NCBI GenBank assembly: GCA_964469295.1
Contig: CAYXYJ010000001.1
Location: 34,334-98,333, forward strand
Source: an uncultured Candidatus Saccharibacteria bacterium
GTDB taxonomy: Bacteria; Patescibacteriota; Minisyncoccia; Phycocordibacterales; UBA918
DNA: 64,000 bases
Reading direction: 5' to 3'
Position 1 is the stretch's first letter; each line of letters starts with the position of its first letter. The translations under genes were made by a program, and so were the position numbers. Positions 1,874-59,641 of the stretch are shown one piece after another. The notes below the pieces were generated by a model. It saw only the letters and a program-made list of their open reading frames with translations, was not told the origin of the DNA and made no database searches.

Positions 1874-3535
1874 TCACTGTTTTTCCACTGCGTCCCGACC
1901 AACGTATATAACAATGTCAATCGGGAGTGCAGTGTCCGATTCTACCGATGATAGCGGTGCGCCACTGAAAAATTTACTTAATTCTAGAGCAGTTGATAAT
2001 GCCGACGGTCGAAATACAATAACCGTTCGGTTTTCAACGGTAGATTCGTCTACTGTAAGTGATTCAATGGCATATCCTGCCTCAATTAACCGTAGCTTTT
2101 GTACTGCAGCAGTACCAGGTATACCGCTTCGATTAGTAATAGCAATAGTACTACTAGTGATATTTGACACAACTATGTTTTGATTGTTTTCTGCTAACTT
2201 TTCGAAATACACGTCTTCTGATGAGAGTGTCTTGGCCGATCCGTCATGCATGACACTCACTTCATACGATACCGTATCAATAGTCATGCGATGAATAATA
2301 ATTACTATCCCAACAATCACCCCAACAAGAATCAGACAGCCCATGAAAAACAATCTATAGGTGTAGAGCGAGCGCACCAGCGAACGTAACCGATGCGTAA
2401 AAATATCATGATTACGCCACGAATTTATCATGTCATCTACCCCAACCCGCACTGGAGCGGTGACGGTTTGGTAGCGACTGATGACGACGGTATTTTTCTG
2501 TGAACTGGCCACTCGTTTTGAGTAGTAATAATCACGATGGTCGCTAGATAACGCGATCATTCTTTTTACATAACGACGGACAAGGATAGACAAAATATAA
2601 AACGCTAACGCAAAACCAACAACAACAACCAGTATAACTTTATAGGGGAAAACCCAAAAATACGTTGTGCTCGTGGCAAACTGTTTTGATTCATCGCCAT
2701 AGCCAACCGTAGCCACTGCTTTATATCGACCTATATCAAATAATGAGGTATTACTCTGCCAATCAAACGAAAATTTTCTTACGCTATTAGGCAATACATT
2801 TCCAAAACGTGTCTGATAATTAATCGGAATTTCTCCCCGAAGATTACCCCACATGTTGTATACATTGATGTTGCCTTGTGGTCGTAAATGAACATTGCCT
2901 TTATTTTCAAAGCGCAAATCAAAAGTGGTACCAGCTTTTTCCATAATAGTATGGGAAGTGGTGAATTCTCGAATGTCACCAGATTCAATAACATCTCCGG
3001 CTACACGAATAAAAAATAACGACGTAACAAATTGTGCCGTCTGCACTGATGATTCGCCCTCCGGTTCGTTAGTTGTGGGTTTCGTTCCCACCAAAACCGC
3101 AGCGTAGTGTCCACCTGGGGTAGCGTCAGCCGGTACAGCGACAGAAATAGGAATGGTCACAGTTTGTTGTTTTGGAACAACAATAGCTTCAGAAGAAATT
3201 TTCATCCATTCACCGAGTGTTGTATTCTTGGTTTCATTTGTATTGATCGGCACAAAATCACCACGCCCGTCTTCTCCCTGCGGTTCAAAGTTGTAAATCT
3301 CGGGATAGACTGTTAAATCGTATAAATTTACATTAACGATTCGTAATTCACTTTGCCATACTTGTCCCGGATTAGCTTTTACTTCAAAAAGCGTCGGGGA
3401 AATACTTAAGGTCTGACTTTCTGGCGATTCTTGTGCGAGAACTAACAGTGGCGTACAACAAAGCACGACAAAAAGCAACAAGATTGTTGCCAGTGTACGT
3501 AGAGAAAAACTAGCGGTCTTTAAGGTTAACATCAT
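1874..3535 (-). CDS. B-family paralog B1: signal peptide + DUF916-like two-domain ectodomain + TM + cytoplasmic loop + TM + C-terminal LytR_C-like domain
   Basis: 553 aa. Signal peptide LLLFVVLCCTPLLVLAQESP. The ectodomain shares the B-family pattern (...NPGQVW...LGEWMKIS...VPADATPGGHYAAVLVG...). TM VILVVVVGFALAFYILSILV is followed by a basic stretch RRYVKR. A second TM is LFFMGCLILVGVIVGIVIII. The C-terminal ~150 aa (NIVVSNITSSTIAITNRSGIPGTAAVQKLRLIEAGYAIESL...IDIVIYVGRDA) resembles the LytR_C (LCP C-terminal) domain pattern. Confidence 0.55.
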   Translation of the reverse strand: MMLTLKTASFSLRTLATILLLFVVLCCTPLLVLAQESPESQTLSISPTLFEVKANPGQVWQSELRIVNVNLYDLTVYPEIYNFEPQGEDGRGDFVPINTNETKNTTLGEWMKISSEAIVVPKQQTVTIPISVAVPADATPGGHYAAVLVGTKPTTNEPEGESSVQTAQFVTSLFFIRVAGDVIESGDIREFTTSHTIMEKAGTTFDLRFENKGNVHLRPQGNINVYNMWGNLRGEIPINYQTRFGNVLPNSVRKFSFDWQSNTSLFDIGRYKAVATVGYGDESKQFATSTTYFWVFPYKVILVVVVGFALAFYILSILVRRYVKRMIALSSDHRDYYYSKRVASSQKNTVVISRYQTVTAPVRVGVDDMINSWRNHDIFTHRLRSLVRSLYTYRLFFMGCLILVGVIVGIVIIIHRMTIDTVSYEVSVMHDGSAKTLSSEDVYFEKLAENNQNIVVSNITSSTIAITNRSGIPGTAAVQKLRLIEAGYAIESLTVDESTVENRTVIVFRPSALSTALELSKFFSGAPLSSVESDTALPIDIVIYVGRDAVEKQ

Positions 3536-4586
3536 GATCGTGATGATTACTTTCTAAACCGGTTCTCACATATACTGGTACCGAATCATCATGATCGGTA
3601 TGATCAATATCGTGATGAGTGCGACGATAATATAACCACGTAAGGACGGCTGATATAAAAAGCAACGCACCAAGTAATGTCACTAAAAAGTATAATGGCA
3701 CAACAGTAAAAAAAGTAGTGTCATACAAAGAGGCTTTTTGCTTTTCACCGTAGGTTAAATTTAAGAAAGCTTTATGACGACCAAAATGATGGGTATTTGG
3801 TAGCGGTTCAGTAAAGGTTTTTTGTTCACTTGGAGCAAGACTTATTTGATCGCTATTGAGTGGTACGGCACCAACTTCTTTTCCACGTACGTCATATAAA
3901 ATTACTTCACCTGAAGGCACTAGAGGAATGTCACCGGTATTTTCAAGTTCATATGTCACACTAGCGTCATTGATATCAGTCACATAACGATCAACAGTAA
4001 AGCGGTGTAACCGCAAATATTCCGATGTTGTATCAGTCACATCGATACGAACAGTCACACCCGGAGCGACGCCAGAGGCAACAATACGTTCAGCTTCGTC
4101 ACGTTTATCACCCTCAGCAAAGCCGATAAACGCGTAATATTCACCCGGCTTCGCGTTTGGGTTGATGGTGACTGATAATGGAATGCGAATCGTTTCGCCG
4201 GGAGCTAATTCTATTCGAGCTCTGGAAATTGCCAACCAACTTGCCACATTAGTGGTTTGGTCGGTCATGACAGGTGCAATAAATTCTTCAATTTTTCCAT
4301 CGATACCGAGAGTAATCGCATTTACTGTTGGAAAAATTTTTACCGGTACTGACCCTTGATTGGTTAATTTAATTTCTTCAACAATAGAACCTCGTGGTTC
4401 AAGTTCGTGTTCGATTACTCGGGGAGTGATTGCGTAAGAACTAGCAAAAAGCAGGTGTGGCAAGAAAAGAAAACTACCTACTATGAAAAGTAGTCTAGTA
4501 GACAGGAAGGGCAATGTAAACAATTTCAGTTTCATAATCACCGGCCGGTTGAGCTGACCTAACCAATACTCGATATAGCATATCAT
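3510..4586 (-). CDS. B-family paralog B2 (DUF916-like surface protein with C-terminal TM anchor and His/Asp-rich tail)
   Basis: ORF of 358 aa. The likely true start is the internal Met at nt 4535 (MKLKLFTLPFLSTRLLFIVGSFLFLPHLLFASSYA is a signal peptide). Two beta-rich domains are followed by TM LYFLVTLLGALLFISAVLTWLYY and a tail RRTHHDIDHTDHDD. It overlaps the 3' end of the 2049-aa gene and overlaps B1 by 26 nt, which suggests translational coupling. Confidence 0.55.
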   Translation of the reverse strand: MICYIEYWLGQLNRPVIMKLKLFTLPFLSTRLLFIVGSFLFLPHLLFASSYAITPRVIEHELEPRGSIVEEIKLTNQGSVPVKIFPTVNAITLGIDGKIEEFIAPVMTDQTTNVASWLAISRARIELAPGETIRIPLSVTINPNAKPGEYYAFIGFAEGDKRDEAERIVASGVAPGVTVRIDVTDTTSEYLRLHRFTVDRYVTDINDASVTYELENTGDIPLVPSGEVILYDVRGKEVGAVPLNSDQISLAPSEQKTFTEPLPNTHHFGRHKAFLNLTYGEKQKASLYDTTFFTVVPLYFLVTLLGALLFISAVLTWLYYRRTHHDIDHTDHDDSVPVYVRTGLESNHHDHDVNLKDR

Positions 4587-7500
4587 GAGATTCGTTCCCC
4601 GGGATAGGGCTATACATAATTTCAGCTAGTGCAGTGTGTAACCCAGCATAACTATCAAGCGGAGAAAACCGGGTTGATCCGTTTAATAAGGTCGCGTCAG
4701 TACTGTGATAGCCGACACAACCCGTCGCACTCGCTGTACAGCCAGTACTCCACCCAACGGGTATTGCATTTGATCCCGTGACAGATGGAATTGATACACC
4801 ATACGAATTTATAAGTTGTTGTCTAGCATACGTATAAATGCGGTACCCATCAGTGGCGTTTGTCGTGATACCAATACGATGCGCGGCGTACACATTTGTA
4901 TTAGGAGCAATCGAACCAAAGGCAATAGCGGTCGGCGTCGTCGACACCGTTGTAGTAACTCCAGCGGTTGACGTACCACTCGGTAAACCACTGACGGTAA
5001 AAGACAACTTTGGAGTTTCTGCCACCAAACTTGGGTACACTTCCCCACTCGCTGCTGGCACAGGTAGGTTTTCATAGACATCGTATAAACGGAAATAGTA
5101 CACTGCACCAGCCCGAGCTGCTGCGTGCTTTAAATAAAAAGCATATTCAGCATTTGCGCCAGCATTGTGTGTATGACCAGCAGCATACACCGCCGAACGA
5201 TTATGTGTCCCACAACCAGAACCAACAGCACTCACACAAGTATCTGCGTCAGATAATACTTTTGTTGTAATGGTAGCATTTTCTTGACCGCCACCATCGG
5301 CATAACACCAGGTCGAAGTGGCCGTGCAGCTGGATGAAGCAACGAGTGTTGTTGGATGGGTAAAGTTAGGATCTTCGTCATATTGCAAACTAAATTTAGT
5401 ATCAATGCCACGAACATGTTTTTGTTCACCAACAGTTACTCGTAACGCAATCACATTTCCATTTTGTACTTCTGTTGGTGCCACTATTTCATTAGCCATA
5501 GCCGTTGCCGGAGTTTCGTTTTGCGCATCATCGTAAAATCGCCAATTTTTTGTTTGCGGGGTAAAACCAGCAGTGCGTATTTGTGGATAATTGAAATACC
5601 CATCAAGAGGCGTTCCATCAGCATGTACCATGCGGAAACAGTAAACACTTTTTTCAGCCGCGCCGTTTTGTTCAACAAACCACTCATATTCAACATCTTC
5701 GCCAGCGTCAACCGGATACGGGTTACTTGGTGACGTACCATCTTCAATCAAACTACCGACTCGATCGGATACCGAAATAAGTAGTTCACCGGGGTTGGGT
5801 GGATTGCTTCCAATTGATACGCCATCAGTCGTGCCGGTCGCCGCATAACCACGCCATAGTTCGCCACTTCCAGCATCACCCAAATTAGTCCACGAACCAA
5901 CCGTCGCACACGAAGTAGTTCGTAACCCGTATTGCAAACGGAAAACATACAGTCCGCTTGGTAAGGTGGCGTTGGCTACTCGCAATGTCATACGTAACCG
6001 TACGTGTTCATTTTCGCCAAGCGGACTGTCGGTAACAGTAATTGGACTATTTTCACCTAAATCGGTGACACCCGGTGGCCATGGATCAGTGGGGGTTACC
6101 GTATTGTTATCAGCATATAAACGATAGTAGTTTTGACGCACTGCTAATCCCGATGTTGGCCATTCGACAATTTCTGAACGAAATACCATGTCCGCCGAAG
6201 CTTCACTTCGCCAAACTTCGTATGTACTTGTTGAAGTGATTCGCGCCCCAGCAAATACCAAGGGGAAATTTGAATTAGCACCAACCACTCGTGAGGTAGC
6301 GAATATCGATGTGTTGTCCGTAGCAGACACTGGATCAATGATGCTTTGCGATAGGACATAGGGTTCACTATTGCTACTAGGGATAGTGAGCTTTTCACGT
6401 GACGTAACCATTGCACCAGCGCTTGTTTGCATGTTTTCAATTACCCAAGCTACAGACGTATGACCACTCGGTGTCGTAGCAGCGCTTTCCAACTGAAACG
6501 AAACAGCGCCAATGCTGGACAACCATACTTCATGACCAAAATTGTTAACGTTAGACAAATTACTTATTCGCTTTTGCGCGTGAATAAATGTCCGCTCAAG
6601 GCTATTGACGGGATTCATTGCTTCGGTTTCGGTAATGGTTGACGAGGCATAGGTGTGTTCAATTCGCTGCACATTCCAGTTAATTCCGCTGTATTCAACA
6701 ACAGCGTAACTTACATCGACAATTGCACCCGTAGAACCACGTAAAAATGTCGGGAGATTATTGTTTGCGTCCCAGTTGGTAGTCACTTGACTGGCATAAA
6801 AGAAATTTCGACCAGTATTGCGATTTTGTATACCGGTAATAAACACCACTACATCAGCATCATCAGTCACACCACTAACCGTTGTGCCCGTCGCGGATGT
6901 GCTGGCACTCGCTAAACTCATTGTGCCAGTACCCAACACTTTCATTTCGTTATCAGTACCGGGGTCGGCAATAAACTCCACAATTTCCCATGTAACACGG
7001 GTATTATTAATCGCCGTTGTCGGCCGAGAAATTGTAAAACTAGTCAATAAGTTGCTTTGACTGATATAGGCAGTAGTATCGTCAGCATTTTGCGCACCAC
7101 CACCAGCGGTTACTTTTCCGGCTCCAGTGAAGTGAGTGTCCGTGATCCGCACAAAGGCAGTTGACGTACTACTTGGTGCCACATAATCGACACCAGCCAC
7201 TAAGGTTGTGCTGGTGCCGGTGACCACGGCCACTCCTTGTTGTACTTTAAAATCTCGTTTTGGTGCCGTTCTTATTTCGGCGTAATTTGTATACTGCGGA
7301 AGCATTTCTCCTCCACCAGTTAACCGAAAACAATATGCCGAATCTACCAACGTTATATTAGTAGAAGTAATACTAAATTCAAATTCAGTGTATTCATTTG
7401 TTGCGAGCACTAGAGCAGTGGTAGTTGATGTGGTATCACGGACTCCGGCATTACTTACCAAAAAATTAACGTTTTCGTCAGTAATTCCCCCATTTCCGTT

Positions 7501-10500
7501 GGCAATATTTGTTGTATTGTTACCATTAGTAATATTTATTGAATCATACATATCCCAATCATCTGTAGCACTTCCTACTGGCGTCCATACAGCGACCATA
7601 TCGCACGTTGTTACTTTCGGTCCAAATTCTAATCGGTACGTTCGTGATACTGATGTGGCATAGCCTTCGTTACTAATACCAATACGTAAACGAATTGGAG
7701 TATTGGCAGAATGATTGGTTAGTGGAGTATTTTCCATACCAAGCGTAGCTGACGTCGCTCCAGTTTCATTCCCGTTATCGTTACGCCAGTGATAATTCGT
7801 CTGGGTAATGATTGAACCGGATAAAGTAGTTGTGCCTGTTAAGGTTATCGATTCTGACGGTGACACAGATCCACTTGATACCACCACATCATTGGTTGGT
7901 GACTGTATACCAATATGAATCGTTTCCCCATTGTGAGCACCGGCTTCCACATCAAAAACCGCATAAATACACATGGTGGTAGTGGTACTAATACCCACCG
8001 AACCCGAAAACGTCGACGTTCCATTGGGCCCAGAAAAACCATCAGCGTCGGTAGTGCCAAATTGTGACTCACTGCCACTATATGATTCACTGGTACAGTC
8101 GTATGGTGCAGTAGTGTCGAGGTCGTAGCGGAGTTTTATGTTCTTTAGGTTGGTGTTGGCGTTGATGGTACCATCTTCGGCGATGGTGATATTCGAAACG
8201 GTTCTTGTGCTTACATTTTCTTTTATGACAAATTTTCCACCAACATAGGCATTGGTTGTTGGAACAATGAGTGACGATACTTGTGTACCGGTAGCCGCCA
8301 CCGATACATCAGCCGCAATCGTCGCACTCGGGTACCGGTCATACACAGGCAATGCTTGACCATTGTCAGTCAAGCGAAAACAATATGTCGTTCCTTCGTG
8401 TGCACTCGTCGATGCAACAATAGAAAATTCTAATTCAACAAAATTTGTGCTGGTTAATGTTAATGATCCAGTTTCTGACGATGTGTCACGGATACCATCA
8501 TTTGGTGTTAAAAACGTAGTGTTTTCGTCAGTCACCCCCCCGTTCCCAACCGCAATATTGGTAGTGTTGTTGCCGTTGGTCACAAACGATGAATTATACA
8601 TATTCCATGCGTCATTGGTCGCATTCACATCAATCCAAGACGCCGCGGCTTCACAAGTTGGAGCGGCTGTAGCATATTCCAAACGAAAACGAGTTGTGGT
8701 GGCAGTAATCGAACCTTCATTTGAAACCTGTACACGTAGCCGTCGTGGCGAGTTTGCCAGTAATGTTGATAAATCAGTATCTTGTACCCCACCAGTGACA
8801 GAAGTCGCGCCGGTTTCATTCCCGTCATCATTTCGCCAATGATAATGAGTTTGTGTAAACTTACTGTTTTTAATTACAGTGCTTGAAGCTATTTGAACCG
8901 CCGTAATCGGCATGACGGTTTGTCCACCAGTCACCACTACATCGTTATTTGGTGATTCTATAGTAATAGACAGCGTATCGCCATCAACGGCTGTCTTTGA
9001 TACATCTACAACTGCATAGACACACATGCTTTGGGTTGGAGAAATACTTACTAATCCCGAAAACGTCGACGTTCCATTGGACCCAGAAAAACCATCAGCG
9101 TCGGTAGTGCCAAATTGTGACTCACTGCCACTATATGATTCACTGGTACAGTCGTATGGTGCAGTAGTGTCGAGGTCGTAGCGGAGTTTTATGTTCTTTA
9201 GGTTGGTGTTGGCGTTGACGGTGCCTCGTTCGGTAACGGTAATTGTTGTGACATTGCGACTCGCTTGACTTTCGCGTATCGCATATTGACCACCAACATA
9301 CACATTGGAAGAGCTTGCGATGACCGTGCTGGTGGCGGTGCCGTTAGCGTACACTTTTACGGCCGGAGCAATATCAGCAATCGTATCACCGAACATATCA
9401 TCCGGCGACGGGTCATACCATGAGATAAAAATACGTTCATCGCTCATGGTGTTCATATCTAATCCACGAAAGTCTCCCGCTGTACTATTTACTGGACCTT
9501 GAGCCGTTGACCATGACGACATTGCGGATGTCGATGTCGACCAGTAGACATTACCGGTAGTAGCAGTGGCAGGCGTAGTGCGAAGTACATAACCAACGTA
9601 AATATTGTTGGTATTCGTATCCATTGATACTGCCACCATCGTTAATCCTCTTGAAGCAATATTTGTAAAAACATCAGCAGTATTTGACCACGCGTTTGAA
9701 GAATATTTTGCTGTTCTAATGTCATGATCAAGAGTGGTGAATTGATCATTATCGGCAGCATATACCAAATACACATCACCAGAGACAGGATCAACCGTTG
9801 CCGCCATACCAGTGTCGTATGTCGCATTTTCTATAGCGTTGGCATCAAATGTTGTCCAAAGTCCAGACCAACTTGCACCGTTCCAAACCCGAGATCTCAT
9901 GTCATCAGCAGACGTATCTCGATTGATAATCATCACTTTACCACCAAGCAACGGTACGAGTAAATTCCAATCATTGGTCACATCCAAAAAGGCACTTCCC
10001 GCTTCAGTCCAATTTGCAGTATTGTTACAGGTTGTAGAACAATGAACCACAAACGCGTCAGATGCGTCAGCGGTGGCAATAAGTACATCACCGGTAGTAC
10101 TTTTCGTCATTGTGATGTTATTGGTTCCAACTGCCAACGTGGGCACTTGTCCAGAATTGGTCGTGGCATTTACTGGTGACGACCCCAACCATAAAGTATC
10201 GCTTGTTGTATCCAAACGATTGTAATACAAACTATCAGCTGCAGCTGACGTTTCCATAGTGGCAATATGGATATAGTTTCCGCTATCACCTGGCGTCCAC
10301 TGATCATACCAAACCACCATACTGCCACAGTCCGTACGAGCGTCCACAGTAACAGCGCTATTCCAACTTGTACCTCCGGTAGTAGTTTTACTATAAACAC
10401 ATGACCCGTTACTATCCCGATAGAATTTATACCCCACGGTATCAGAAACAAACACGGTTTGTGAACCACCAAAAAAATAGGAGTTGGCATCGGTGCTTGT

Positions 10501-10644
10501 TGTGGCATCTATGGTAACTTGCGCGGCTTCAACTATGACTGGACTAAATAAATATTGTAAAAAACCCCACTGCGATAAAAAAATTATCACAATCAAAAAG
10601 CCAGTTAATCCTTTACAGGCAAAAAGCGCTGGACACCTCCACAT
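4495..10644 (-). CDS. giant secreted surface protein (2049 aa): N-terminal BNR/Asp-box-like propeller region, two tandem ~351-aa modules, C-terminal A-type anchoring-like domain
   Basis: Signal peptide FLIVIIFLSQWGFLQYLF. The N-terminal region has Asp-box-like motifs (KTTTGGTSWNS, SNAWSNT, STSAMSSWST). A tandem duplicated module is present (NANTNLKNIKLRYDLDTTAPYDCTSESYSGSESQFGTTDADGFSG... then YHWRNDDGNETGATS...LRLRIGISNEG...YRLEFG...YCFRLT). The C-terminus ...SAQPAGDYETEIVYIALPVY matches the A1/A2 C-termini. Confidence 0.75.
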   Translation of the reverse strand: MWRCPALFACKGLTGFLIVIIFLSQWGFLQYLFSPVIVEAAQVTIDATTSTDANSYFFGGSQTVFVSDTVGYKFYRDSNGSCVYSKTTTGGTSWNSAVTVDARTDCGSMVVWYDQWTPGDSGNYIHIATMETSAAADSLYYNRLDTTSDTLWLGSSPVNATTNSGQVPTLAVGTNNITMTKSTTGDVLIATADASDAFVVHCSTTCNNTANWTEAGSAFLDVTNDWNLLVPLLGGKVMIINRDTSADDMRSRVWNGASWSGLWTTFDANAIENATYDTGMAATVDPVSGDVYLVYAADNDQFTTLDHDIRTAKYSSNAWSNTADVFTNIASRGLTMVAVSMDTNTNNIYVGYVLRTTPATATTGNVYWSTSTSAMSSWSTAQGPVNSTAGDFRGLDMNTMSDERIFISWYDPSPDDMFGDTIADIAPAVKVYANGTATSTVIASSSNVYVGGQYAIRESQASRNVTTITVTERGTVNANTNLKNIKLRYDLDTTAPYDCTSESYSGSESQFGTTDADGFSGSNGTSTFSGLVSISPTQSMCVYAVVDVSKTAVDGDTLSITIESPNNDVVVTGGQTVMPITAVQIASSTVIKNSKFTQTHYHWRNDDGNETGATSVTGGVQDTDLSTLLANSPRRLRVQVSNEGSITATTTRFRLEYATAAPTCEAAASWIDVNATNDAWNMYNSSFVTNGNNTTNIAVGNGGVTDENTTFLTPNDGIRDTSSETGSLTLTSTNFVELEFSIVASTSAHEGTTYCFRLTDNGQALPVYDRYPSATIAADVSVAATGTQVSSLIVPTTNAYVGGKFVIKENVSTRTVSNITIAEDGTINANTNLKNIKLRYDLDTTAPYDCTSESYSGSESQFGTTDADGFSGPNGTSTFSGSVGISTTTTMCIYAVFDVEAGAHNGETIHIGIQSPTNDVVVSSGSVSPSESITLTGTTTLSGSIITQTNYHWRNDNGNETGATSATLGMENTPLTNHSANTPIRLRIGISNEGYATSVSRTYRLEFGPKVTTCDMVAVWTPVGSATDDWDMYDSINITNGNNTTNIANGNGGITDENVNFLVSNAGVRDTTSTTTALVLATNEYTEFEFSITSTNITLVDSAYCFRLTGGGEMLPQYTNYAEIRTAPKRDFKVQQGVAVVTGTSTTLVAGVDYVAPSSTSTAFVRITDTHFTGAGKVTAGGGAQNADDTTAYISQSNLLTSFTISRPTTAINNTRVTWEIVEFIADPGTDNEMKVLGTGTMSLASASTSATGTTVSGVTDDADVVVFITGIQNRNTGRNFFYASQVTTNWDANNNLPTFLRGSTGAIVDVSYAVVEYSGINWNVQRIEHTYASSTITETEAMNPVNSLERTFIHAQKRISNLSNVNNFGHEVWLSSIGAVSFQLESAATTPSGHTSVAWVIENMQTSAGAMVTSREKLTIPSSNSEPYVLSQSIIDPVSATDNTSIFATSRVVGANSNFPLVFAGARITSTSTYEVWRSEASADMVFRSEIVEWPTSGLAVRQNYYRLYADNNTVTPTDPWPPGVTDLGENSPITVTDSPLGENEHVRLRMTLRVANATLPSGLYVFRLQYGLRTTSCATVGSWTNLGDAGSGELWRGYAATGTTDGVSIGSNPPNPGELLISVSDRVGSLIEDGTSPSNPYPVDAGEDVEYEWFVEQNGAAEKSVYCFRMVHADGTPLDGYFNYPQIRTAGFTPQTKNWRFYDDAQNETPATAMANEIVAPTEVQNGNVIALRVTVGEQKHVRGIDTKFSLQYDEDPNFTHPTTLVASSSCTATSTWCYADGGGQENATITTKVLSDADTCVSAVGSGCGTHNRSAVYAAGHTHNAGANAEYAFYLKHAAARAGAVYYFRLYDVYENLPVPAASGEVYPSLVAETPKLSFTVSGLPSGTSTAGVTTTVSTTPTAIAFGSIAPNTNVYAAHRIGITTNATDGYRIYTYARQQLINSYGVSIPSVTGSNAIPVGWSTGCTASATGCVGYHSTDATLLNGSTRFSPLDSYAGLHTALAEIMYSPIPGNESHDMLYRVLVRSAQPAGDYETEIVYIALPVY
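8003..8166. repeat. 164-bp near-identical direct repeat, copy 2 (inside the 2049-aa gene)
   Basis: Compared by eye with 9056..9219. It is identical except for one G/A difference (gggccc vs ggaccc, giving FSGPNG vs FSGSNG). The spacing is 1053 nt, equal to 351 codons. Confidence 0.8.
9056..9219. repeat. 164-bp near-identical direct repeat, copy 1 (inside the 2049-aa gene)
   Basis: Partner of 8003..8166. The flanking module homology is only ~60% at the amino-acid level, so this core looks recently homogenised. Confidence 0.8.
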
Positions 10645-12513: not shown

Positions 12514-13251
12514 TTAATACGCTAGTTTTGTTAACAAAATCGAAAAATCTCTGAAATTCATGACTCCGTCATCATTAAAATCGTACACGGTTGAATGTTT
12601 TGTCCAAGCTGCCAAAAAAGCGCTCACATCAGCCAGTGAGACCTTGCCATCAGTAGTAATATCAAATTGGGTATTTACGGCCGTAATAATTGTATCGTTT
12701 TGATCATTGGTGTGTTTTACTTCAGCCGTTAAAAGACCAACATCTTTGTCAGCCAATTCTGTTCCTCGACCATCACCGGCTAATAATGATACCTTTTTAA
12801 TGGTAAAAACAGCTGAATCAAGTGAATCTGATACCACTTTCAGTGAAGCGATTTTATGCTTTCCGACAAATCCTTTACGGTACGTACCTCCTTCAAAATA
12901 AGCAACATGATCAGTCACAACTGGATCTTTTGTCCATAAGGTAATGACTGATTCACCTTTATCGATAGATTGTACGACTACCGAATTGGGGATGTTGATT
13001 TCTAAATTAACAGCATTTACCGGTTCTTTGGCGAATACATAAATATTCACCGTATATGACTGACCAACAAGTTGTTTGGTGCTGGGCACCTCAATAATAA
13101 CTCGAGTTTCAGCGTTACTTTGCAATACAGCTGCCAAACCTGAAGCAGCCAAAATGAAGAGAAGCCAAGAAAAGGTAAACCGTACGGTTGCTGTACGATT
13201 AGGATAAAAATTTTGAAAATACCGCTTTATCCAAGTGACCGCACGGTTCAT
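12514..13251 (-). CDS. cohesin-like domain protein with C-terminal dockerin
   Basis: 245 aa. After an N-terminal TM there is a cohesin-like beta domain (VIIEVPSTKQLVGQSYTVNIYVFAKEPVNAVNLEINIPNSVVVQSIDKGESVITLW...). The C-terminal part is a tandem EF-hand-like dockerin (DITTDGKVSLADVSAFLAAW...DFNDDGVMNFRDFSILLTKL). Confidence 0.6.
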   Translation of the reverse strand: MNRAVTWIKRYFQNFYPNRTATVRFTFSWLLFILAASGLAAVLQSNAETRVIIEVPSTKQLVGQSYTVNIYVFAKEPVNAVNLEINIPNSVVVQSIDKGESVITLWTKDPVVTDHVAYFEGGTYRKGFVGKHKIASLKVVSDSLDSAVFTIKKVSLLAGDGRGTELADKDVGLLTAEVKHTNDQNDTIITAVNTQFDITTDGKVSLADVSAFLAAWTKHSTVYDFNDDGVMNFRDFSILLTKLAY

Positions 13252-13935: not shown

Positions 13936-15669
13936 TTATTCTACAAGATCAGTAACATCTTTCACTTCTTTATTTACACGTTGTTTTAGTGTGTTTAAAC
14001 CATCAGTCACTAATGTGATAATTTTTTCTTCACTGGTAGTTAATTTGTTAGTTTTTCTTGACTCAGATAATTCAACGACATACTCGTGTAAAGTTTTTTG
14101 TAATCTAGTAAATTCCGCACTAAGTACCGAAGACACTTCAACAGCTTCTTTATCAACATACTGACGCAAGCGTCGTACTCGATACCAGGTATACATGGTC
14201 ACGATAACCAACAATGCCAATAAGGCGATGAGTGGGATAAATACCGTTAAGAACGAAATAACATATGAACCAACTCGTAGTATACCACTTTGTTCGACTA
14301 ATAGTTTTACTGGCGCAGATACAACACTTTGTGCCCCATATTGATCTTTGGCTGAAACCGTAAGTGTATACACACCAGTAGCAAAAGCGTTATCAGGAAT
14401 AAATCTAAATTGACCGGATTCATCAGCAGTCACGGTATAGTTTTTTGGTTCAACACCAGTTTCAAAAACAGTAATAGTCACTTCAGCTCCACCGCGAGTT
14501 TTACCGGTTATGGCGGGAATAATACCGGGCGGAATACGGACGGGTACATCCAGTAGCACCGGAGCATCAAATGCCTCAATCGTAATTGACAGGTTGGCAA
14601 AAGCGCTATTGCCAGCTTCGTCAATCGCTTCAATTACAAGGTTATGGGCTCCTGGTGCCAGATCAGTTACCGTTAGAGAATTTTTGTTGTCGGGATTAGT
14701 AAACTCTTTTATTTCTCCACCATCAACTTGCACTTTGAATGTTTTAATTGGCGCACCATTATTGCTCGTCGTGGTTGCAATAATTGTTTGGCTTGGATTG
14801 GCTAAGTTATTGTCAGGAGCAAGACTAACCGAAAAATTTTCCGGCGCACTGCCATCCACGGCCAAACGATAATGCGTCACCTTACCCCAACCGTCAGCAT
14901 TTTTAAATTGAATATGAAGATACGAAATACCCTCATCCAAATCACGAAGTGTCAGTGATGAGATTGGCGTGTCGTATACTTTGGTGGGAATAGCGGTCGG
15001 GTTACTATCTAAACTGGTACGCACCGCCGTCACTCCGGCTGGTACTGTCCACGTTAACTCAGCGGTGGTACTTTTTGACCAACCATCAGCCGGATGAGTG
15101 ACTGAAGTAACTTTGGGAGCGGTCGGTGTATTCGCTGATGGCACAAATTCCACGACAACTTCTGGCGCGGGGGCCGAACTGGCAGCGGTGACGGTGTAGG
15201 TTCCGCTATTCATATTTGTTAGCACATTTGTACCACGACCATCAGCAGCAAGCACTGAACCACCTGACATCGTAATCCGCGCTGTTCCTGCTACTAACGT
15301 ACGGAACGTTACTGTCATAATGGTACCAGCGGCACCAGTATATCCGCTTGGCGAACCACCACTAAAAGTGATAGTGCCAGCACTATTAGAAAACGTGGGT
15401 TCAGTAGTCCATAGTGAAAAAATAGAACTCCCGCGAGAAACTGCTACAACCGATAATTGGGACGGATCAAATGATACGGTGCCGTCAGCAGCGTTAATTG
15501 ATTTTCCACTCGTATTAACTAAGACCGACACGGTAAATGTGTTACCAATCGTATAGACTCCGGTACTAGGTGACACCGACACTGACGCAGCGTTCACTGA
15601 TACACCAACCCCCAAACCAGCAAATATCACCACGAAAAATACTATTGTTTTATACAAAGAACGAATCAT
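13936..15669 (-). CDS. membrane-anchored cohesin-like scaffold protein with Ig/FN3-like domains
   Basis: 577 aa. The N-terminal domain AASVSVSPSTGVYTIGNTFTVSVLVNTSGKSINAADGTVSFDPSQLSVVAVSRGSSIFSLWTTEPTFSNSAGTITFSGGSP... matches the cohesin pattern. The C-terminus has a TM (FLTVFIPLIALLALLVIVTMYTWY) and a coiled-coil tail. It is a paralog of 50054..51616 (shared SLWTTEPTFSNSAGTITF). Confidence 0.6.
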   Translation of the reverse strand: MIRSLYKTIVFFVVIFAGLGVGVSVNAASVSVSPSTGVYTIGNTFTVSVLVNTSGKSINAADGTVSFDPSQLSVVAVSRGSSIFSLWTTEPTFSNSAGTITFSGGSPSGYTGAAGTIMTVTFRTLVAGTARITMSGGSVLAADGRGTNVLTNMNSGTYTVTAASSAPAPEVVVEFVPSANTPTAPKVTSVTHPADGWSKSTTAELTWTVPAGVTAVRTSLDSNPTAIPTKVYDTPISSLTLRDLDEGISYLHIQFKNADGWGKVTHYRLAVDGSAPENFSVSLAPDNNLANPSQTIIATTTSNNGAPIKTFKVQVDGGEIKEFTNPDNKNSLTVTDLAPGAHNLVIEAIDEAGNSAFANLSITIEAFDAPVLLDVPVRIPPGIIPAITGKTRGGAEVTITVFETGVEPKNYTVTADESGQFRFIPDNAFATGVYTLTVSAKDQYGAQSVVSAPVKLLVEQSGILRVGSYVISFLTVFIPLIALLALLVIVTMYTWYRVRRLRQYVDKEAVEVSSVLSAEFTRLQKTLHEYVVELSESRKTNKLTTSEEKIITLVTDGLNTLKQRVNKEVKDVTDLVE

Positions 15670-16694
15670 ATAATTTCATTTATCTCGTCGGTGATAGTTG
15701 TCGTCGCTTGTTTTTTCAATCTTCGACGTCGCCAGAAAATCACACTAATAATAATTAGAATAACAACAAACAAACCACCAGCTCCAATAATCAAAAAGTT
15801 GGTTGCGTTTTTATACCATGGCATAGAAAGGCCTTGTGGGGCTAACGTGGCCACATATTCATTTCCAGCTTTATCAATAGCTCGAACTCGAATGATACTT
15901 CGTAATGTCTGATCTTTAAGCACGTATGGACTACGCACTTCAGCCCATGGAGCAGTCGCCGCTCCAAATGAAAACCAATTAGCTTCTTCAGTGGATTCTT
16001 CTAGCACCTCGTAGTGACTAATGCCAGTTTGTTTGTCGGTAGTGTTAAAAACAATGAAATATTTATTATCAAACGCATAATTGTCTTGCTCAAGTGAAAT
16101 ATCAAATGGTTCTGGAGTGATGGTATCTTCGGCTACAGTATCGCGCCAACCATCAATAATATCCGAGCCAACGAAACTATTAAGTGTTAGCGTGGTGCCA
16201 AGTGTAGTCATAGTTGCCGCTGTACCAAAACCATCGTTTAAATATGCCGTTGTTTCTGGGGCAAAATTAACAGCAGCCATACCAGCCGATTCACCGCCGC
16301 CGATTTGCAATCCGGGTGAGCGAAATACGATTTCAGCCACCACATTAGTCAAACGAGGGTCACCTTCTATTCGTCTGCAATAACCATTGGGAATACCGCC
16401 AGCAAAAGTGATGGTACGATGTTCTTTATCAATCTTTGGATTTTCAACCCACACTGGGAAAATTGACCGACCAATTGACACATCAACGGGAACGATACTT
16501 GCATCATAGGTTACCACACCGTCAATCGCATTAATACATTCACCTTCAGCTTCATTAGTGTCCACTCGTAACGCTATCGTTACCGCATCACCACGATTTA
16601 ATGTGGCGGTTGGCGGATCCATATATAATGTCGCGGCCATTACTGGTGCACAAGACACAGACCAAAGAACTGCTCCAATTAAAAATTTCCACAT
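15666..16694 (-). CDS. cohesin-like domain protein with C-terminal TM anchor
   Basis: 342 aa. Signal peptide WSVSCAPVMAATLY. The domain ...DAVTIALRVDTNEAEGECINAIDGVVTYDASIVPVDVSIGRSIFPVWVENP...ITFAGGIPNGY fits the cohesin pattern. C-terminal TM LIIGAGGLFVVILIIISVIFW is followed by RRRRLKK. A 4-nt overlap with the upstream gene is present. Confidence 0.5.
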   Translation of the reverse strand: MWKFLIGAVLWSVSCAPVMAATLYMDPPTATLNRGDAVTIALRVDTNEAEGECINAIDGVVTYDASIVPVDVSIGRSIFPVWVENPKIDKEHRTITFAGGIPNGYCRRIEGDPRLTNVVAEIVFRSPGLQIGGGESAGMAAVNFAPETTAYLNDGFGTAATMTTLGTTLTLNSFVGSDIIDGWRDTVAEDTITPEPFDISLEQDNYAFDNKYFIVFNTTDKQTGISHYEVLEESTEEANWFSFGAATAPWAEVRSPYVLKDQTLRSIIRVRAIDKAGNEYVATLAPQGLSMPWYKNATNFLIIGAGGLFVVILIIISVIFWRRRRLKKQATTTITDEINEII

Positions 16695-16749
16695 ATCCGT
16701 TAATGTTAGTATACGTCATCATTTACCGCAAAAAGTGAATTTTACACAA

Positions 16750-16784
16750 AGCAAAAACCCTACTCGTGGTGGGAGATAGGGTTA
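16750..16784 (-). terminator. rho-independent terminator downstream of A1
   Basis: The minus-strand transcript reads AACCCTAtCTCccaccacGAGTAGGGTTTTTGCTTTG. That is an ~8-bp stem with one bulge and a 7-nt loop, followed by a U5 tract. Confidence 0.5.
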
Positions 16785-16818
16785 TTTGCATATTACTCCA
16801 AGCTTGGACCAATATTCT

Positions 16819-18024
16819 TTAGAACACTGGTGTTGCTACGTATGTCAGCGTAGCGGTATAGTCGTCTCCGGCTTCTTGTAGATCTGAGATTTCAACTTTG
16901 TATCCAACGCGCGTTCGACCGATATTTGCAGTCGTTCCGTCTGATGGACCATCATGTCTGAATACCTCAACCGGTGTAGTTGAAGCAGAAACAAATAATT
17001 GTCCTGTTCCTCCCACATCAAACGGATCATCAAGATTTTCCGTTAACGTCTCATCTTCAGTTGTCAGACCCCAATGTCCCCAAGTGTCTTCATCACTAAT
17101 AGATTCTGAAGGTTGTACCCACGTCACAGGTGTCGTGGTATATGCTCCATCAATAAATCCATCAATATCAGCACCCGTTGATGACAATAATTGTTGGTCT
17201 ACAGCCACCGTAACAACGAATCCATAGCTGGCGTTAGTTGCTACTGATAGCTGTTGAGCTGCGGTTGAAGCAGTCCCAGCTTCCAAGACTCCAAATGGAA
17301 TCGCCGTAGCGGTGGTATCGCCGGTGATTAATTCGCTATTTACATAGCCACCCGCGTTTACTCCATCAACGGTAAAAGTGAAACTGGTATCAACTGAAGC
17401 GGTGACAACGACTGGTGACACGATCGCGACTCGAGTAGCTCCAGTATCTGTTGCTCCGGCTTCAATGTTAATCTCATATGAACCAACCGTAGGATTAGTA
17501 ATCTGATTTACACCAGAAGCACCAAAAGTGGCATTTGTTCCAATTTCAATGGTTGTTGTCCCATTAACTGGCAGTGAGCCCCCATCACCAGGACAGAAGG
17601 TCAGAATGATTTCATCAGACAAAGCTGAAAAACCAACTTGTTCTGATCCGGTACAGTCAGCAGCCACATCAAGATCGGTAGCGTCATCAGCAATATCAAC
17701 ATCTTCATAGTCCACCGCACCAAGTACGAATGGTCCATCGGAAAAGTCGATAGTGATAGAATCCCCTTCTGCCACTCCTGTTGGAGTAACAAATGTGATC
17801 GTGTGATTGGCACCAACTGATGGTGCTGAATCTGATAATGTATCACTTACTAATTTGACATTTGCGGCTTCCGCAAAGCGAAATGTAGGCACTCCGAGTG
17901 TCCACATAAGGACAGTGAAAGTAACTACAAAAGCCACAGCTTGGAGTAGACCGAACGTGGTTTTCGTTCTACTCATGTAACTACTACGTTGTATTAGCCT
18001 GACACTGCCGTATCTGAAAAACAT
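16819..18024 (-). CDS. A-family secreted surface protein A1 (S-layer-like/WxL-like candidate) with conserved C-terminal motif ...AGDDYTATLTYVATPVF
   Basis: 401 aa with a signal anchor (LLQAVAFVVTFTVLMWTLGVPTF). It is acidic and T/G/A/V/S-rich. It shares long blocks with 56947..58074 (GTNATFG..G.N.ITNPT.GSYE, TSFTFTV, WGHWGLT, C-terminal LQEAGDDY..(L)TY(V/I)ATP.F). It has its own terminator and a 445-nt upstream leader. Confidence 0.7.
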   Translation of the reverse strand: MFFRYGSVRLIQRSSYMSRTKTTFGLLQAVAFVVTFTVLMWTLGVPTFRFAEAANVKLVSDTLSDSAPSVGANHTITFVTPTGVAEGDSITIDFSDGPFVLGAVDYEDVDIADDATDLDVAADCTGSEQVGFSALSDEIILTFCPGDGGSLPVNGTTTIEIGTNATFGASGVNQITNPTVGSYEINIEAGATDTGATRVAIVSPVVVTASVDTSFTFTVDGVNAGGYVNSELITGDTTATAIPFGVLEAGTASTAAQQLSVATNASYGFVVTVAVDQQLLSSTGADIDGFIDGAYTTTPVTWVQPSESISDEDTWGHWGLTTEDETLTENLDDPFDVGGTGQLFVSASTTPVEVFRHDGPSDGTTANIGRTRVGYKVEISDLQEAGDDYTATLTYVATPVF

Positions 18025-18296
18025 TTACAGCAACGCACAGCGCGACCCTGCATCGTTCGTGAGTGTGGTCTCCACCCCACTTCCCAACTATTGAATGAAA
18101 GGCATATCAAGTCTGTAACACCGGCTGAGTGCCCTCTTACGCGACGAGAGCAGCGTCACTAAAATTTGACACCTCCAAACTTGATACAAATTTATTGTAC
18201 ATGGTAATGATTGCTAAGTCTGTCGGTTATACACAAAAGATTGCAGCCATTATCACTCGCTCACAGAAAAATAATATTCTGTTGATATGTTGGCAC

Positions 18297-18364
18297 CTAT
18301 CCCTTCACTACATATTCGTAATGTAGTCGCTTGGCAGGGAATGGAGAATATGTAGTGAAGGGAT
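18297..18364. promoter_or_regulatory. 22-bp perfect inverted repeat (cctatcccttcactacatattc / gaatatgtagtgaagggatagg) with a 24-nt loop in the long A1 upstream region
   Basis: Seen directly in the sequence. No U-tract follows on either strand, so it is unlikely to be a simple intrinsic terminator. It may be a leader-RNA structure or a protein-binding palindrome. Confidence 0.45.
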
Positions 18365-18468
18365 AGGAACCGATATGGTACATCAATCAAAGTGAAAATA
18401 AATATATCCTGCAATGAAGATATTCAACTTAGAATACTGAATCAATCGACGATAAATAATAGTAAAAT

Positions 18469-19593
18469 TTATCCAGTCCAGTTAAAAAGCAAAATTGAAA
18501 AATCTTCCAACCCAACTTTTCCATTACCATTTATATCTGCCGGCGGATTAGAATCCCCACCATTTGTTTGCCACCAAAATATTAAAATTGAAAAGTCGGT
18601 CAGGTTAATTTTTCCGTCACGACTTAAATCGCTTGGAGTAGCCGGCGCTCCATCCACACCGACAAACAGTTGCACAATCGAACTATACCCACTTTGCGTT
18701 AACAACGGCGCCGTTCCGGTCACTGATCGAGCTTTTAACGCATACTGGGCGTTAGCTAATCCTGTTGTATTAAGGGTGTAAGAAAATTTTCCACTCGCGT
18801 CACTGGTTGCTCGTTCTATCCTCGCACTACTACCAATTTGTAATTCAATTTGTGCATTCGGGATACCTTGACCGGCGATAGTCACCGGGCTTCCCGCTGC
18901 AATTTTTGCTGGTGTTACTGCTATCGTCGGCGGCAAAATCAGGCCAGACAAATTTGTGATGGCCCCTTGTGTAACGTCAAACGTATTATTTAAGGTAATT
19001 GATCGACGCCCCGCTGAATCGTTTGCCCACACTCCTAATGTTGCCGTTCCCGGCGAAACTTCCGTGGCAAATTCAAAACGACCGTTACTTCCCGCCCGGA
19101 CAGAGCCGACTGAACGCGAATCGATTAGAAAGTTAATTTGTTGACCAGGGTATCCCAATCCAGTTACACTAACTGATGTATCACCTAAATCTTTAGTGCT
19201 TCCACCGCGCCCACCACTTCCACCGCCACTACTTCCACCACCACCAGAACCAGCTGGTTCGACAGTACAGGTGGCCGAACAAAAGTCACCACTATCATTA
19301 TTAGTATCATCGCACTCTTCTCCATAAAGAGTTTGCAAAATACCATCTCCGCAATAGGGTCCAAAATCGCAGGTAGCTGTACATTGTCGGCCAGCAATGG
19401 TTGTACTGTAGAGACCCGTTTCTCCTAATACATCACATTCTTCGCCAGCATCAACCAATTCATTACCACAAATACTTAAATTAATGACCGTATCAATATT
19501 CTGAGTTGATGTGGCAATCAATTGAGCATTCACGGTTGTAGCTGACAAAGCGAGCGCGAGTAATGCACTTATGGTCAGCAAATACACACGCAT
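18469..19593 (-). CDS. secreted protein with Myxococcus-type cysteine-rich repeats, Gly/Ser linker, Ig-like region and C-terminal dockerin
   Basis: 374 aa with a signal peptide. The Cys-rich repeats are CGNELVDAGEECD... and CGDGILQTLYGEECDDTNNDSGDFCSATC. A linker GSGGGGSSGGGSGGRGGS follows. The C-terminal dockerin is SDLSRDGKINLTDFSILIFWW...DINGNGKVGLEDFSILLFNWTG. Confidence 0.6.
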   Translation of the reverse strand: MRVYLLTISALLALALSATTVNAQLIATSTQNIDTVINLSICGNELVDAGEECDVLGETGLYSTTIAGRQCTATCDFGPYCGDGILQTLYGEECDDTNNDSGDFCSATCTVEPAGSGGGGSSGGGSGGRGGSTKDLGDTSVSVTGLGYPGQQINFLIDSRSVGSVRAGSNGRFEFATEVSPGTATLGVWANDSAGRRSITLNNTFDVTQGAITNLSGLILPPTIAVTPAKIAAGSPVTIAGQGIPNAQIELQIGSSARIERATSDASGKFSYTLNTTGLANAQYALKARSVTGTAPLLTQSGYSSIVQLFVGVDGAPATPSDLSRDGKINLTDFSILIFWWQTNGGDSNPPADINGNGKVGLEDFSILLFNWTG

Positions 19594-58372: not shown

Positions 58373-59641
58373 TTACGGTATTGCGGACACTACGGCAATA
58401 TCAGACCACCGTGTCGTGTATGATGGCGACAAAGCGTCTTTTTTGTTTTCCCACAGAGGCTGTTTGGCAAAGGCGCCAATCCGAATCACATCGGTGTGGT
58501 GTTTATCATTAATTTTTTGCAATACCTGATCAATGGCAAAACGCCTTGTAATTGTTGTGTCTCCATAATCATTTTCCCATAAAGCCGGTGTTACATAGTG
58601 CCGCGGAATCAATCCGCCAACTACACACCCAACTTTGCTATAGACAACTCCTGGTTGGTACATAGTATCGATCATCCGCATCGCTAACTTCATTCCCGTC
58701 ATGACATCTCCTAATGGCGTTGTGGGTATTTCGACCATTGCCGTTCCTTGGCGAGCAAAATCACCGTGGCGACTCGTCAATAGTAAAATTCTTATCATAC
58801 CGACCAATAATGATTGCTGTTGTAAATCATTAAAGACATTACGGACATGATGAGCGAGAGCGTCCTTTATGACCGATAAGTCTGTCGTCTTGGTACCAAA
58901 AGATCTCGTTGACATGATACTTTGTGGTAGGACGGATGTTATTGCTATGTCATACATGGAAATTCCTTGCAATTCATATTGCAAGCGGACGCCCACCACT
59001 CCAAACAACGTCTCCACTCGACGCGGTGGTGTATCAACCAAATCACGAACTGTCGTGATACCTGCTCTATGGTACCGTTCTCTTAATTCACGACCGACAC
59101 CCCAAACATCACCAATCGGCGTACTACCATACGTTGCCACAAAATCACCAAGACATATACCAATACCGCCCGTACGCTTGGCTTGGGCATTCACTAATTT
59201 TGCCAGGGTTTTTGTTTGAGCAGCTGCTACTGACACCGGAATACCAACTCGTTGCTCGACGGCATTTTTAATCCGAGATAATTCCGATTGAATAGTGGCG
59301 ACGTCAGTTCCTGTCACTCTAAAAAACGCCTCATCAATTGAATACTGTTCAACGGTCGCACAGAGCGATCGTAATACCGTAAATACCCGGGCTGAGATAT
59401 CCCGGTACAGCGCGAAATTTGAAGAAAAGCAGGTAACACCGTTGTCTTTTATGATGTCCTTTATTTGAAAGTAAGGGACACCCATGGAAATACCCATGTC
59501 CTTTACTTCTTGTGACCGAGCGACCACACACCCATCGTTACTTGACAGAACCAAGACCGGCCGATTCCGCAAATCTGGTCGAAACAGTCGCTCGCATGAC
59601 ACGAAAAAATTATTACAATCGATCAAGCCAACAAGTTCCAT
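58373..59641 (-). CDS. umuC: Y-family translesion DNA polymerase (UmuC/DinB-like)
   Basis: 422 aa. The N-terminus is MELVGLIDCNNFFVSCERLFRPDLRNRPVLVLSSNDGCVVARSQEVK, which is the classic UmuC/ImpB start. The palm motif is ...YSIDEAFF.... Confidence 0.8.
   Translation of the reverse strand: MELVGLIDCNNFFVSCERLFRPDLRNRPVLVLSSNDGCVVARSQEVKDMGISMGVPYFQIKDIIKDNGVTCFSSNFALYRDISARVFTVLRSLCATVEQYSIDEAFFRVTGTDVATIQSELSRIKNAVEQRVGIPVSVAAAQTKTLAKLVNAQAKRTGGIGICLGDFVATYGSTPIGDVWGVGRELRERYHRAGITTVRDLVDTPPRRVETLFGVVGVRLQYELQGISMYDIAITSVLPQSIMSTRSFGTKTTDLSVIKDALAHHVRNVFNDLQQQSLLVGMIRILLLTSRHGDFARQGTAMVEIPTTPLGDVMTGMKLAMRMIDTMYQPGVVYSKVGCVVGGLIPRHYVTPALWENDYGDTTITRRFAIDQVLQKINDKHHTDVIRIGAFAKQPLWENKKDALSPSYTTRWSDIAVVSAIP

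Follow-up and report, generated by a model that had tools for sequence, protein, structure and literature searches.

Background

Gene conversion within genes and between ectopic copies, a source of concerted evolution, has been reported from surface and silk proteins that contain repeats, and from paralogs in bacteria. The locus that we describe here resembles these cases in that a sharp tract of near-identity, synonymous sites included, overlies old and diverged tandem paralogs, and the homogenisation likewise appears to be non-reciprocal, to preserve frame and length, and to be sporadic across lineages. It differs from them in having two repeats only, with 53% DNA identity, and in its setting, an unannotated protein family of an uncultured Patescibacteria host. 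A literature search on gene conversion within the genes of bacterial surface proteins brought up no work on this family in particular.

Two other systems invite comparison. The Periscope proteins are bacterial surface stalk proteins of variable length, in which whole repeat units are highly identical and differ in number between strains, and the DNA identity between repeats has been proposed as the substrate for intragenic recombination (PMC8201768). The protein studied here is similar to them as a large secreted or anchored protein of tandem beta-sandwich domains (in our case modelled with AF2), but its near-identity extends over no more than 163 of 1053 nt, and the module number is two in all orthologs examined. 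The template and variable repeats of diversity-generating retroelements (DGRs), whose differences are usually many and confined to template adenines, also come as two near-identical copies of 100-200 nt, as here in a surface protein of a CPR bacterium; unlike DGR repeats, however, the two copies show no adenine-biased mismatch spectrum, and each encodes, in frame, a part of one of two homologous domains. For domain D1 alone, the cohesin modules of cellulosome-type scaffoldins are a further point of comparison in fold.

A surface protein with two diverged tandem modules

The window, by which we mean the whole 64-kb stretch of DNA that was analysed, encodes a protein of 2049 aa whose layout is given in Table 1. 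Searches of this protein against Pfam and NCBIfam gave no match, nor did a comparison of PDB sequences with a profile built from 33 of its orthologs. A length of about 2050 aa is kept across the Patescibacteria orthologs (MAGs of Paceibacteria, Nomurabacteria and Kaiserbacteria). The AF2 model of residues 428-1136 (pLDDT 92.4) predicts four beta-sandwich domains, two in each module, and its Foldseek matches are the Ig-like domains of PrgB and the legs of integrins. As a separate observation, the gene order around this surface protein is conserved, and the protein is widespread without carrying any annotation.

Table 1. Features of the gene for the 2049-aa protein, in window coordinates
Feature	Position	Strand	Remark
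Gene for 2049-aa protein	4495..10644	-	N-terminal signal/anchor (hydrophobic)
Module A, aa 432-782	8299..9351	-	D1A + D2A
D1A, beta-sandwich domain, aa 432-595	8860-9351	-	
D2A, beta-sandwich domain, aa 596-782	8299-8859	-	
Module B, aa 783-1133	7246..8298	-	D1B + D2B
D1B, beta-sandwich domain, aa 783-945	7810-8298	-	
D2B, beta-sandwich domain, aa 946-1133	7246-7809	-	
Homogenised tract, module A copy, aa 476-530	9056..9218	-	probable recipient
Homogenised tract, module B copy, aa 827-881	8003..8165	-	probable donor
Sole difference between tract copies	8028 G vs 9081 A (plus strand)	-	CCC Pro874 vs TCC Ser523

A first, sequence-only reading of this DNA had described a tandem arrangement of modules of about 351 aa spaced by 1053 nt, and this arrangement is real, with the boundaries listed in Table 1. 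The amino acid identity of about 60% that it gave for the two modules was slightly too high: BLASTP yields 55-56% with the tract included, and without it the two share 47% of their amino acids and 53% of their bases. Tandem Repeats Finder reported no repeat between window positions 5000 and 13000, because modules A and B are too diverged.

A near-identical tract within the modules

At an offset of 1053 nt, or 351 codons, the segments 8003-8165 and 9056-9218 share 162 of their 163 bases. The single G/A difference had been noted correctly before, but the end of the tract had been set one base too far, at 8166, which is a mismatched position; the true end is 8165. Mismatches at 8002 and 8166 bound the tract, and the identity of the flanks falls to 50-65%. 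The one internal difference, at 8028/9081, is a nonsynonymous C/T difference on the coding strand that lies 25 nt from the tract border, and the longest exact run within the tract extends over 137 nt (8029-8165). No longer high-identity repeat exists in the 64-kb window, and a 72-nt piece of the tract occurs at two places only in the window, where none is expected (100 shuffles). At the protein level, the motif most conserved in the first beta-sandwich domain, NIKLRYDLDTTAPYDC.SESY.G.E.QFG.TD.DGFSG.NGTSTFSG, lies within the tract.

Aligning the two modules codon by codon, as the sequence-only reading had suggested, separates the tract from the remainder of the modules. Where both modules encode the same amino acid, the codons are identical in 52 of 52 cases within the tract, compared to 60 of 133 (45%) outside (P ~5e-19), and the identity at third positions is 1.00 in the tract and 0.2-0.5 elsewhere. 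Since synonymous sites are homogenised only inside the tract, selection at the level of the protein cannot explain it.

The identity of synonymous sites, together with a single mismatch that reads G/A on the plus strand, would also be compatible with a constraint acting on the nucleotides themselves, with the identity of the two stretches maintained by an RNA or DNA element embedded in them or by their being the template and variable repeats of a DGR. We consider this extremely unlikely, as the window contains no Rfam family, the predicted folding of the tract RNA is no more stable than that of shuffled sequence (z = +0.98), and the tract is not conserved across lineages, being only about 62% identical to the homologous tract of the TARA ocean lineage described below (the typical DNA identity between A and B cores is ~0.61-0.65). 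A DGR pair in particular does not agree with the presence of one mismatch only, with both copies being coding, or with the position of the copies, neither of which falls within a C-terminal variable region. On the minus strand, which bears the gene, every ORF of 120 aa or more was scanned and none contained a reverse transcriptase domain, which, along with the single mismatch, upholds the initial judgement that the repeat is not DGR-like.

An ancient duplication with a recent overlay

Both modules are present in more than 100 Patescibacteria orthologs, and each module resembles the corresponding module of other genomes (about 65% identity) more than its sister module (about 47-50%). For module A of the query, the identity is 57-67% with the A modules of the orthologs and 45-50% with their B modules, and the converse holds for module B. 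The same pattern is found in the flanks of the tract when compared with close orthologs (A-to-A 0.60 and 0.55; A-to-B 0.45 and 0.43), but it is lost in the tract itself (A-to-A 0.66 versus A-to-B 0.70). Because the modules are closer to their cross-genome counterparts than to the sister module, the duplication has to be ancient and the tract a recent overlay; as judged from these comparisons of orthologs, the module duplication is older than the divergence of many Patescibacteria species. The closest relatives available for the comparison reach 66% amino acid identity in the protein database, 66% in genome contigs and 57% in metagenome contigs, with none above 66%, and an exact look-up of the protein turned up no recorded contig.

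One could suppose that the whole module was duplicated recently and that the core is simply the part that has not yet diverged, the rest having changed rapidly under diversifying selection, and fast evolution is indeed possible in surface proteins. The orthology pattern refutes this scenario, to which we assign a negligible probability: more than 100 other species have orthologs of module A and of module B, so the duplication predates those speciations (overall protein divergence 35-50%).

The reading that we favour, with a probability of roughly 0.8, is that the 163-nt patch represents a recent, short and non-reciprocal intragenic gene conversion between the two modules, themselves ancient and arranged in tandem. 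The sequence-only reading had likewise proposed a recent event of conversion or recombination between the diverged modules, and the data bear it out: synonymous sites are homogenised in the tract only, the flanks keep their A and B orthology, and a distant lineage has an independent tract at the same position.

Recurrence of homogenised tracts in other lineages

The distant lineage is a TARA ocean lineage (L001) whose protein is 52% identical to the query in amino acids. At the homologous site its two modules share an exact tract of 199 nt, and the tracts of both lineages finish at the homologous Gly codon of ..STFSG. The 199-nt tract is present on scaffolds from three separately assembled samples, among them a strain variant that differs at 20 of 6141 nt. 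Another lineage (L035) carries an exact A/B tract of 69 nt at a second conserved motif, YHWRNDDGNE, and the modules of two more (L067 and L106) are 86-90% identical over 170 nt, with the tract of L106 located in the core of domain 1. Such tracts are rare: a run of eight or more codons identical between the modules is missing from 76 of 79 loci, and the longest exact A/B match is typically 14 nt, falling at one of the two conserved motifs in 41 of the 79 loci. Family-wide, the A-B identity within a genome is slightly above that between genomes, with the excess peaking at these two motifs (+3.1% and +3.3%). As far as these loci indicate, homogenisation is sporadic, appearing to have arisen independently in L001 and L035 and to be absent from most lineages.

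The tract of the window itself is known from a single MAG contig, from the one assembly of this organism, and an assembler that collapsed variants through bubble popping, or that threaded the repeat incorrectly, might have created or exaggerated the identity. The sole mismatch lies near the tract border, where a de Bruijn bubble could not have closed, which would fit differences popped from the interior. However, a bubble can be popped only if long k-mers are shared on either side of it, which requires copies that were nearly identical from the start. Each copy is also flanked on both sides by the A or B sequence that orthology predicts, and the length of the gene is that of its orthologs. The repeated recovery of the TARA tract from separate assemblies, a strain variant among them, also argues against an artefact, and we consider this explanation very unlikely. 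A few real differences in a tract that was already near-identical may nevertheless have been lost during metagenome assembly.

The recurrence of tracts at one site raises the question of function. Conversions may happen at random, with those that cover this segment persisting because the two modules have to offer one and the same surface, such as a cohesin-like face for docking a common partner. The homogenisation of the same segment, independently and with the same terminal Gly codon, in two lineages of such low identity speaks for this idea, as do the similar modules of L067 and L106, the latter in the same core of domain 1. In most orthologs, however, about 40% of residues are different between the two cores (median identity 0.60), which shows that they need not be identical, and the common border coincides with the end of the conserved motif, where any tract would seem to stop. 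The resemblance to cohesins is also not significant by profile: domain D1 has no match to the Pfam cohesin family (PF00963) at E<=0.01, and hhalign assigns a probability of 0.5% (E 0.13) to a match between the D1 family and the cohesins encoded in the window. Functionally driven homogenisation thus appears unlikely to us. Its more specific form, in which the D1 core would be a putative and possibly cohesin-like docking surface for dockerin-bearing proteins encoded nearby, at window 12514-13251, 18469-19593 and 52273-54201, with selection repeatedly favouring conversions that make both sites identical, we regard as distinctly unlikely. If true, it would explain why independent lineages share the same segment and the same 3' border, and the 2050-aa protein would serve a surface assembly of Patescibacteria as a scaffold with two sites.

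Constancy of module number

The sequence-only reading had also suggested that the locus may be a hotspot for module-number variation. This does not agree with the orthologs, as every one examined has two modules: all of the approximately 100 aligned orthologs of 2025-2064 aa contain exactly two, the sampled orthologs of 2441-2477 aa owe their added length to an N-terminal duplication and likewise have two, and so do the further loci examined. Within the marine L001 cluster, which bears the 199-nt exact repeat, every full-length member is 2046 aa long, strain variants included. Insertions at three loci were considered as third modules and rejected; the one in L128 is instead an unrelated domain (DUF2341/LamG-like by eye), and those in L123 and L126 are both located inside D2. 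Rare variants of module number may occur in populations.

Probable direction and proposed mechanism of the conversion

Two residues within the tract are diagnostic of module type among the 37 closest orthologs. At position 517, module A has N in 36 of 37 and module B has D in 25 of 37; at position 523, module A has D in 24 of 37 and module B has N in 35 of 37. The module A copy of the tract carries the B-type residues D517 and N523, and both copies are thus B-type at the two diagnostic positions. These residues suggest that the conversion probably proceeded from B to A, while log-odds of A-type against B-type summed over all 98 orthologs did not resolve the donor. The donor may also have been a third paralogous copy elsewhere in the genome.

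The gene conversion that we favour could have proceeded as follows. Purifying selection would hold the modules most alike in DNA at the D1 core motif, and the longest exact matches tend to fall there. With the longest DNA matches located at the conserved motif, strand invasion can start there, and invasion followed by repair of the heteroduplex may occasionally take place, either inside one chromosome or between it and its sister. The window does not encode the recombination machinery (RecA and others). One copy, with module B as the probable donor, would then be overwritten by the other, leaving frame, length and module number unchanged. As the modules are very diverged, the tract is short and confined to the most conserved motif.

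Conclusions

The process invoked here is already known and implies no new mechanism, and the locus provides no evidence for phase or length variation. What the tract would offer is a clean natural example of how short conversion tracts can be, and where they are placed, when the repeats are very diverged: this one is located at the site where the longest nucleotide matches have survived under purifying selection. The D1 core motif is thereby flagged as the most constrained part of the ~2050-aa surface protein. If the tract is indeed the product of gene conversion, then homologous recombination would act within the genes of uncultured, reduced-genome Patescibacteria.

A near-identical tract within two diverged modules

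The protein studied here contains two tandem 351-aa modules, A and B, which are 55-56% identical in BLASTP with the tract included and, outside it, share 47% of residues and 53% of bases. When the sequence is compared with itself at a distance of 1053 nt, 162 of 163 positions agree between 8003-8165 (module B) and 9056-9218 (module A), with an exact run of up to 137 nt and a sole mismatch, 8028 G versus 9081 A (CCC, Pro874, versus TCC, Ser523, on the coding strand). The sequence-only reading had described a 164-bp core; its near-identity and single G/A difference hold, but its end at 8166 is one base too far, since mismatches at 8002 and 8166 bound the tract. The window contains one 72-nt segment of the tract at just these two sites, where none would be expected in shuffled sequence, and its other repeats all fall well short of the tract.

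To assess synonymous sites, we considered those positions in a codon alignment of A and B at which both modules have the same degenerate amino acid. The same codon is used at 52 of 52 such positions inside the tract but at only 60 of 133 (45%) outside it, and the probability of the tract's codon identity under the outside rate is ~5e-19. At third codon positions, identity is 1.00 within the tract against 0.2-0.5 elsewhere, and the alignment maps the borders, as the sequence-only reading had suggested it could, to a sharp change within a few codons at each end. The identity of the tract is not accounted for by selection at the protein level. An RNA or DNA element that holds the copies identical is also unlikely, given that there is no Rfam match, that shuffled versions of the tract fold just as well (z = +0.98), and that the tract sequence is not conserved between lineages. 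A DGR is excluded, in agreement with the sequence-only reading: on the minus strand, which bears the gene, a scan of all ORFs of 120 aa or longer revealed no reverse transcriptase domain, and the lone mismatch shows no adenine pattern.

The protein and its neighborhood

The 2049-aa protein has a hydrophobic signal/anchor at its N-terminus, no Pfam or NCBIfam match, and no sequence relative in the PDB. For aa 428-1136, AlphaFold2 with 60 orthologs gives a confident model (pLDDT 92.4). It has four all-beta domains arranged as D1A-D2A-D1B-D2B, that is, first and second beta-sandwich domains of each module, and its Foldseek matches are strings of Ig-like domains (PrgB, integrin alpha legs). In the D1 model, the tract corresponds to a helical turn followed by the strand NIKLRYDLD, a long loop that contains Cys, a short strand, another loop and the beginning of the strand after it. 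At its 3' end, the ORF shares 92 nt (4495-4586) with the downstream ORF 3510-4586 in its longest reading; the real start of the latter is probably further inside.

The neighborhood is a cell-surface island of cohesin, dockerin, Ig-like, WxL-interacting and LytR_C proteins, with a MacB/FtsX ABC transporter and a giant ORF, and up to LytR_C it follows the gene order of the related loci L001 and L002 (cohesin-like, ~626 aa, ~2050 aa, ~330 aa, LytR_C, DUF3179). Dockerin-type segments of 50-63 nt are repeated between genes (12533-12582, 18477-18632, 52281-52436). The giant ORF has internal repeats spaced 2307 and 2370 nt, and a 53-nt island of 94% identity within it (41600-41652 versus 42389-42441, spacing 789) may reflect a similar local homogenisation. 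The Y-family polymerase and the S24 peptidase, ~2 kb apart with NUDIX and GH18 genes between them, together look like a umuDC-like pair.

Coordinates of features in the window and of exact tracts in two related loci (own numbering)
Feature	Coordinates	Strand	Remarks
2049-aa ORF	4495-10644	minus	contains both modules and both tract copies
Module A	aa 432-782	minus
Module B	aa 783-1133	minus
Cohesin- and dockerin-domain proteins	12514-13251, 13936-15669, 18469-19593, 50054-51616, 52273-54201	minus (all)
Giant 7749-aa ORF	26756-50005	minus	DUF2341, Gly_rich_2, Ig_Rha78A_N domains
Y-family DNA polymerase	58373-59641	minus	IMS, IMS_C, DUF4113
S24 LexA/UmuD-like peptidase	61753-62184	minus
L001 199-nt exact tract	4388-4586 vs 5438-5636		modules A/B
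L035 69-nt exact tract	8761-8829 vs 9811-9879		modules A/B, D2 motif; different species

Age of the duplication and probable direction of transfer

A database search returned 368 homologs, the best 120 of which come from uncultured Patescibacteria (under the labels Nomurabacteria, Kaiserbacteria, Paceibacteria or Parcubacteria) and are nearly full length, mostly 2025-2064 aa. Module A of the query is 57-67% identical to the first module of these proteins and 45-50% to the second, and module B exhibits the opposite pattern, being nearer to their second module. Because each module is closest to its own counterpart, the duplication is older than the divergence of all these species; a recent duplication of the whole module is excluded by this pattern. 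The flanks of the tract keep their orthology, A being nearer to A (0.60 and 0.55) than to B (0.45 and 0.43), whereas the tract itself loses it (A to A 0.66, A to B 0.70). By these comparisons, the module duplication is ancient and the tract recent.

In a comparison of the 37 closest orthologs, the module type can be read from two tract positions: 517 (module A, N in 36 of 37; module B, D in 25) and 523 (module A, D in 24; module B, N in 35). Both window copies bear the B-type residue at these positions, while at position 531, just beyond the tract, each has its own module type. Module B is therefore the probable donor and module A the recipient, with moderate support from the two sites.

Recurrence in other lineages

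In an alignment of 100 orthologs, conservation common to both modules is highest over the tract region (median A-B identity 0.60 in this core versus 0.42 in the flanks), and near-identical cores occur only in the window protein and in P0108, a homolog with 52% aa identity to the query. Its DNA (L001, a TARA ocean scaffold) has an exact tract of 199 nt, or 65 identical codons, at the homologous site. The two tracts are only ~62% identical in sequence, indicating that the events were independent. The 90% cluster of P0108 comprises six members on 21 contigs, and its full-length members are all 2046 aa long and all have both identical cores. Scaffolds from two further samples (L162, L163) carry the same 199-nt tract in both copies in a strain variant with 20 differences over the 6141 nt of the gene; thus, the tract in the TARA lineage is no assembly accident and predates the strain divergence. 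In the window's single contig, an assembly artefact may lie behind the exact level of identity, but even then the copies must have been nearly identical, and the independent TARA case demonstrates a biological phenomenon. The two D1 domains may be selected for identical surfaces: both independent tracts stop at the homologous Gly codon of ..STFSG. However, this codon also closes a conserved motif, where any tract would seem to end, and a difference of ~40% in the core is tolerated by most orthologs.

In a systematic scan of 79 loci (the window, one additional locus and 77 genomes that each represent a species), runs of at least eight identical codons between modules are found in three (L001, the window and L035) and in none of the other 76. 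The window's run is 45 codons, broken by the one mismatch; that of L035 is 22 codons (69 nt exact) and falls on the second domain's YHWRNDDGNE motif, where it marks a further place of local homogenisation. Weaker tracts, with 86-92% identity over 78-170 nt, occur in L067, L106, L120 and others. Downstream of the ortholog, L067 also has a direct repeat (16630-17237 versus 18032-18642, 612 nt at 93%), as does L025 (14077-14180 versus 18609-18712, 104 nt at 99%). The longest exact A-B match in a typical genome measures 14 nt (interquartile range 11-16), and in 41 of the 79 loci the longest match sits at one of two conserved motifs. A-B identity is slightly higher within than between genomes, with peaks of +3.1% and +3.3% at the same two motifs and an excess of +1.2% for the module outside the core. 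Taken together, the results point to rare conversion events, seeded at sites where purifying selection kept the best nucleotide matches.

Module number

The suggestion that the tract marks a hotspot for module-number variation found no counterpart in the data, with two modules in every ortholog examined. All ~100 aligned orthologs of ~2050 aa have exactly two, as do the sampled orthologs of 2441-2477 aa, whose extra ~390 aa are a duplicated N-terminal region. Some members of this longer class (P0040-P0074, e.g. L014) have a precomputed BNR/sialidase-like PF13088 match. Distant metagenomic relatives with longer matches (L123, L125, L126, L128, L132) have unrelated insertions but no third module: L128 has a 366-aa insertion between modules (4021-5118) without similarity to D1 or D2, DUF2341/LamG-like as judged by eye only, and the others have ~250-aa insertions inside D2 of module A, in L123 (3511-4314), L126 (2182-2925) and, judging by domain spacing, L125 and L132. 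If the 137-nt exact repeats recombined unequally, exactly 351 codons would be lost or gained in frame, and module-number variants may exist at low frequency.

Recent gene conversion between modules A and B, as originally proposed, is well supported by codon homogenisation inside the tract only, by flanks that keep their orthology, and by independent recurrence in the TARA lineage. The process is well known, and we see here a fresh example of it in an unannotated but widespread surface protein of Patescibacteria.
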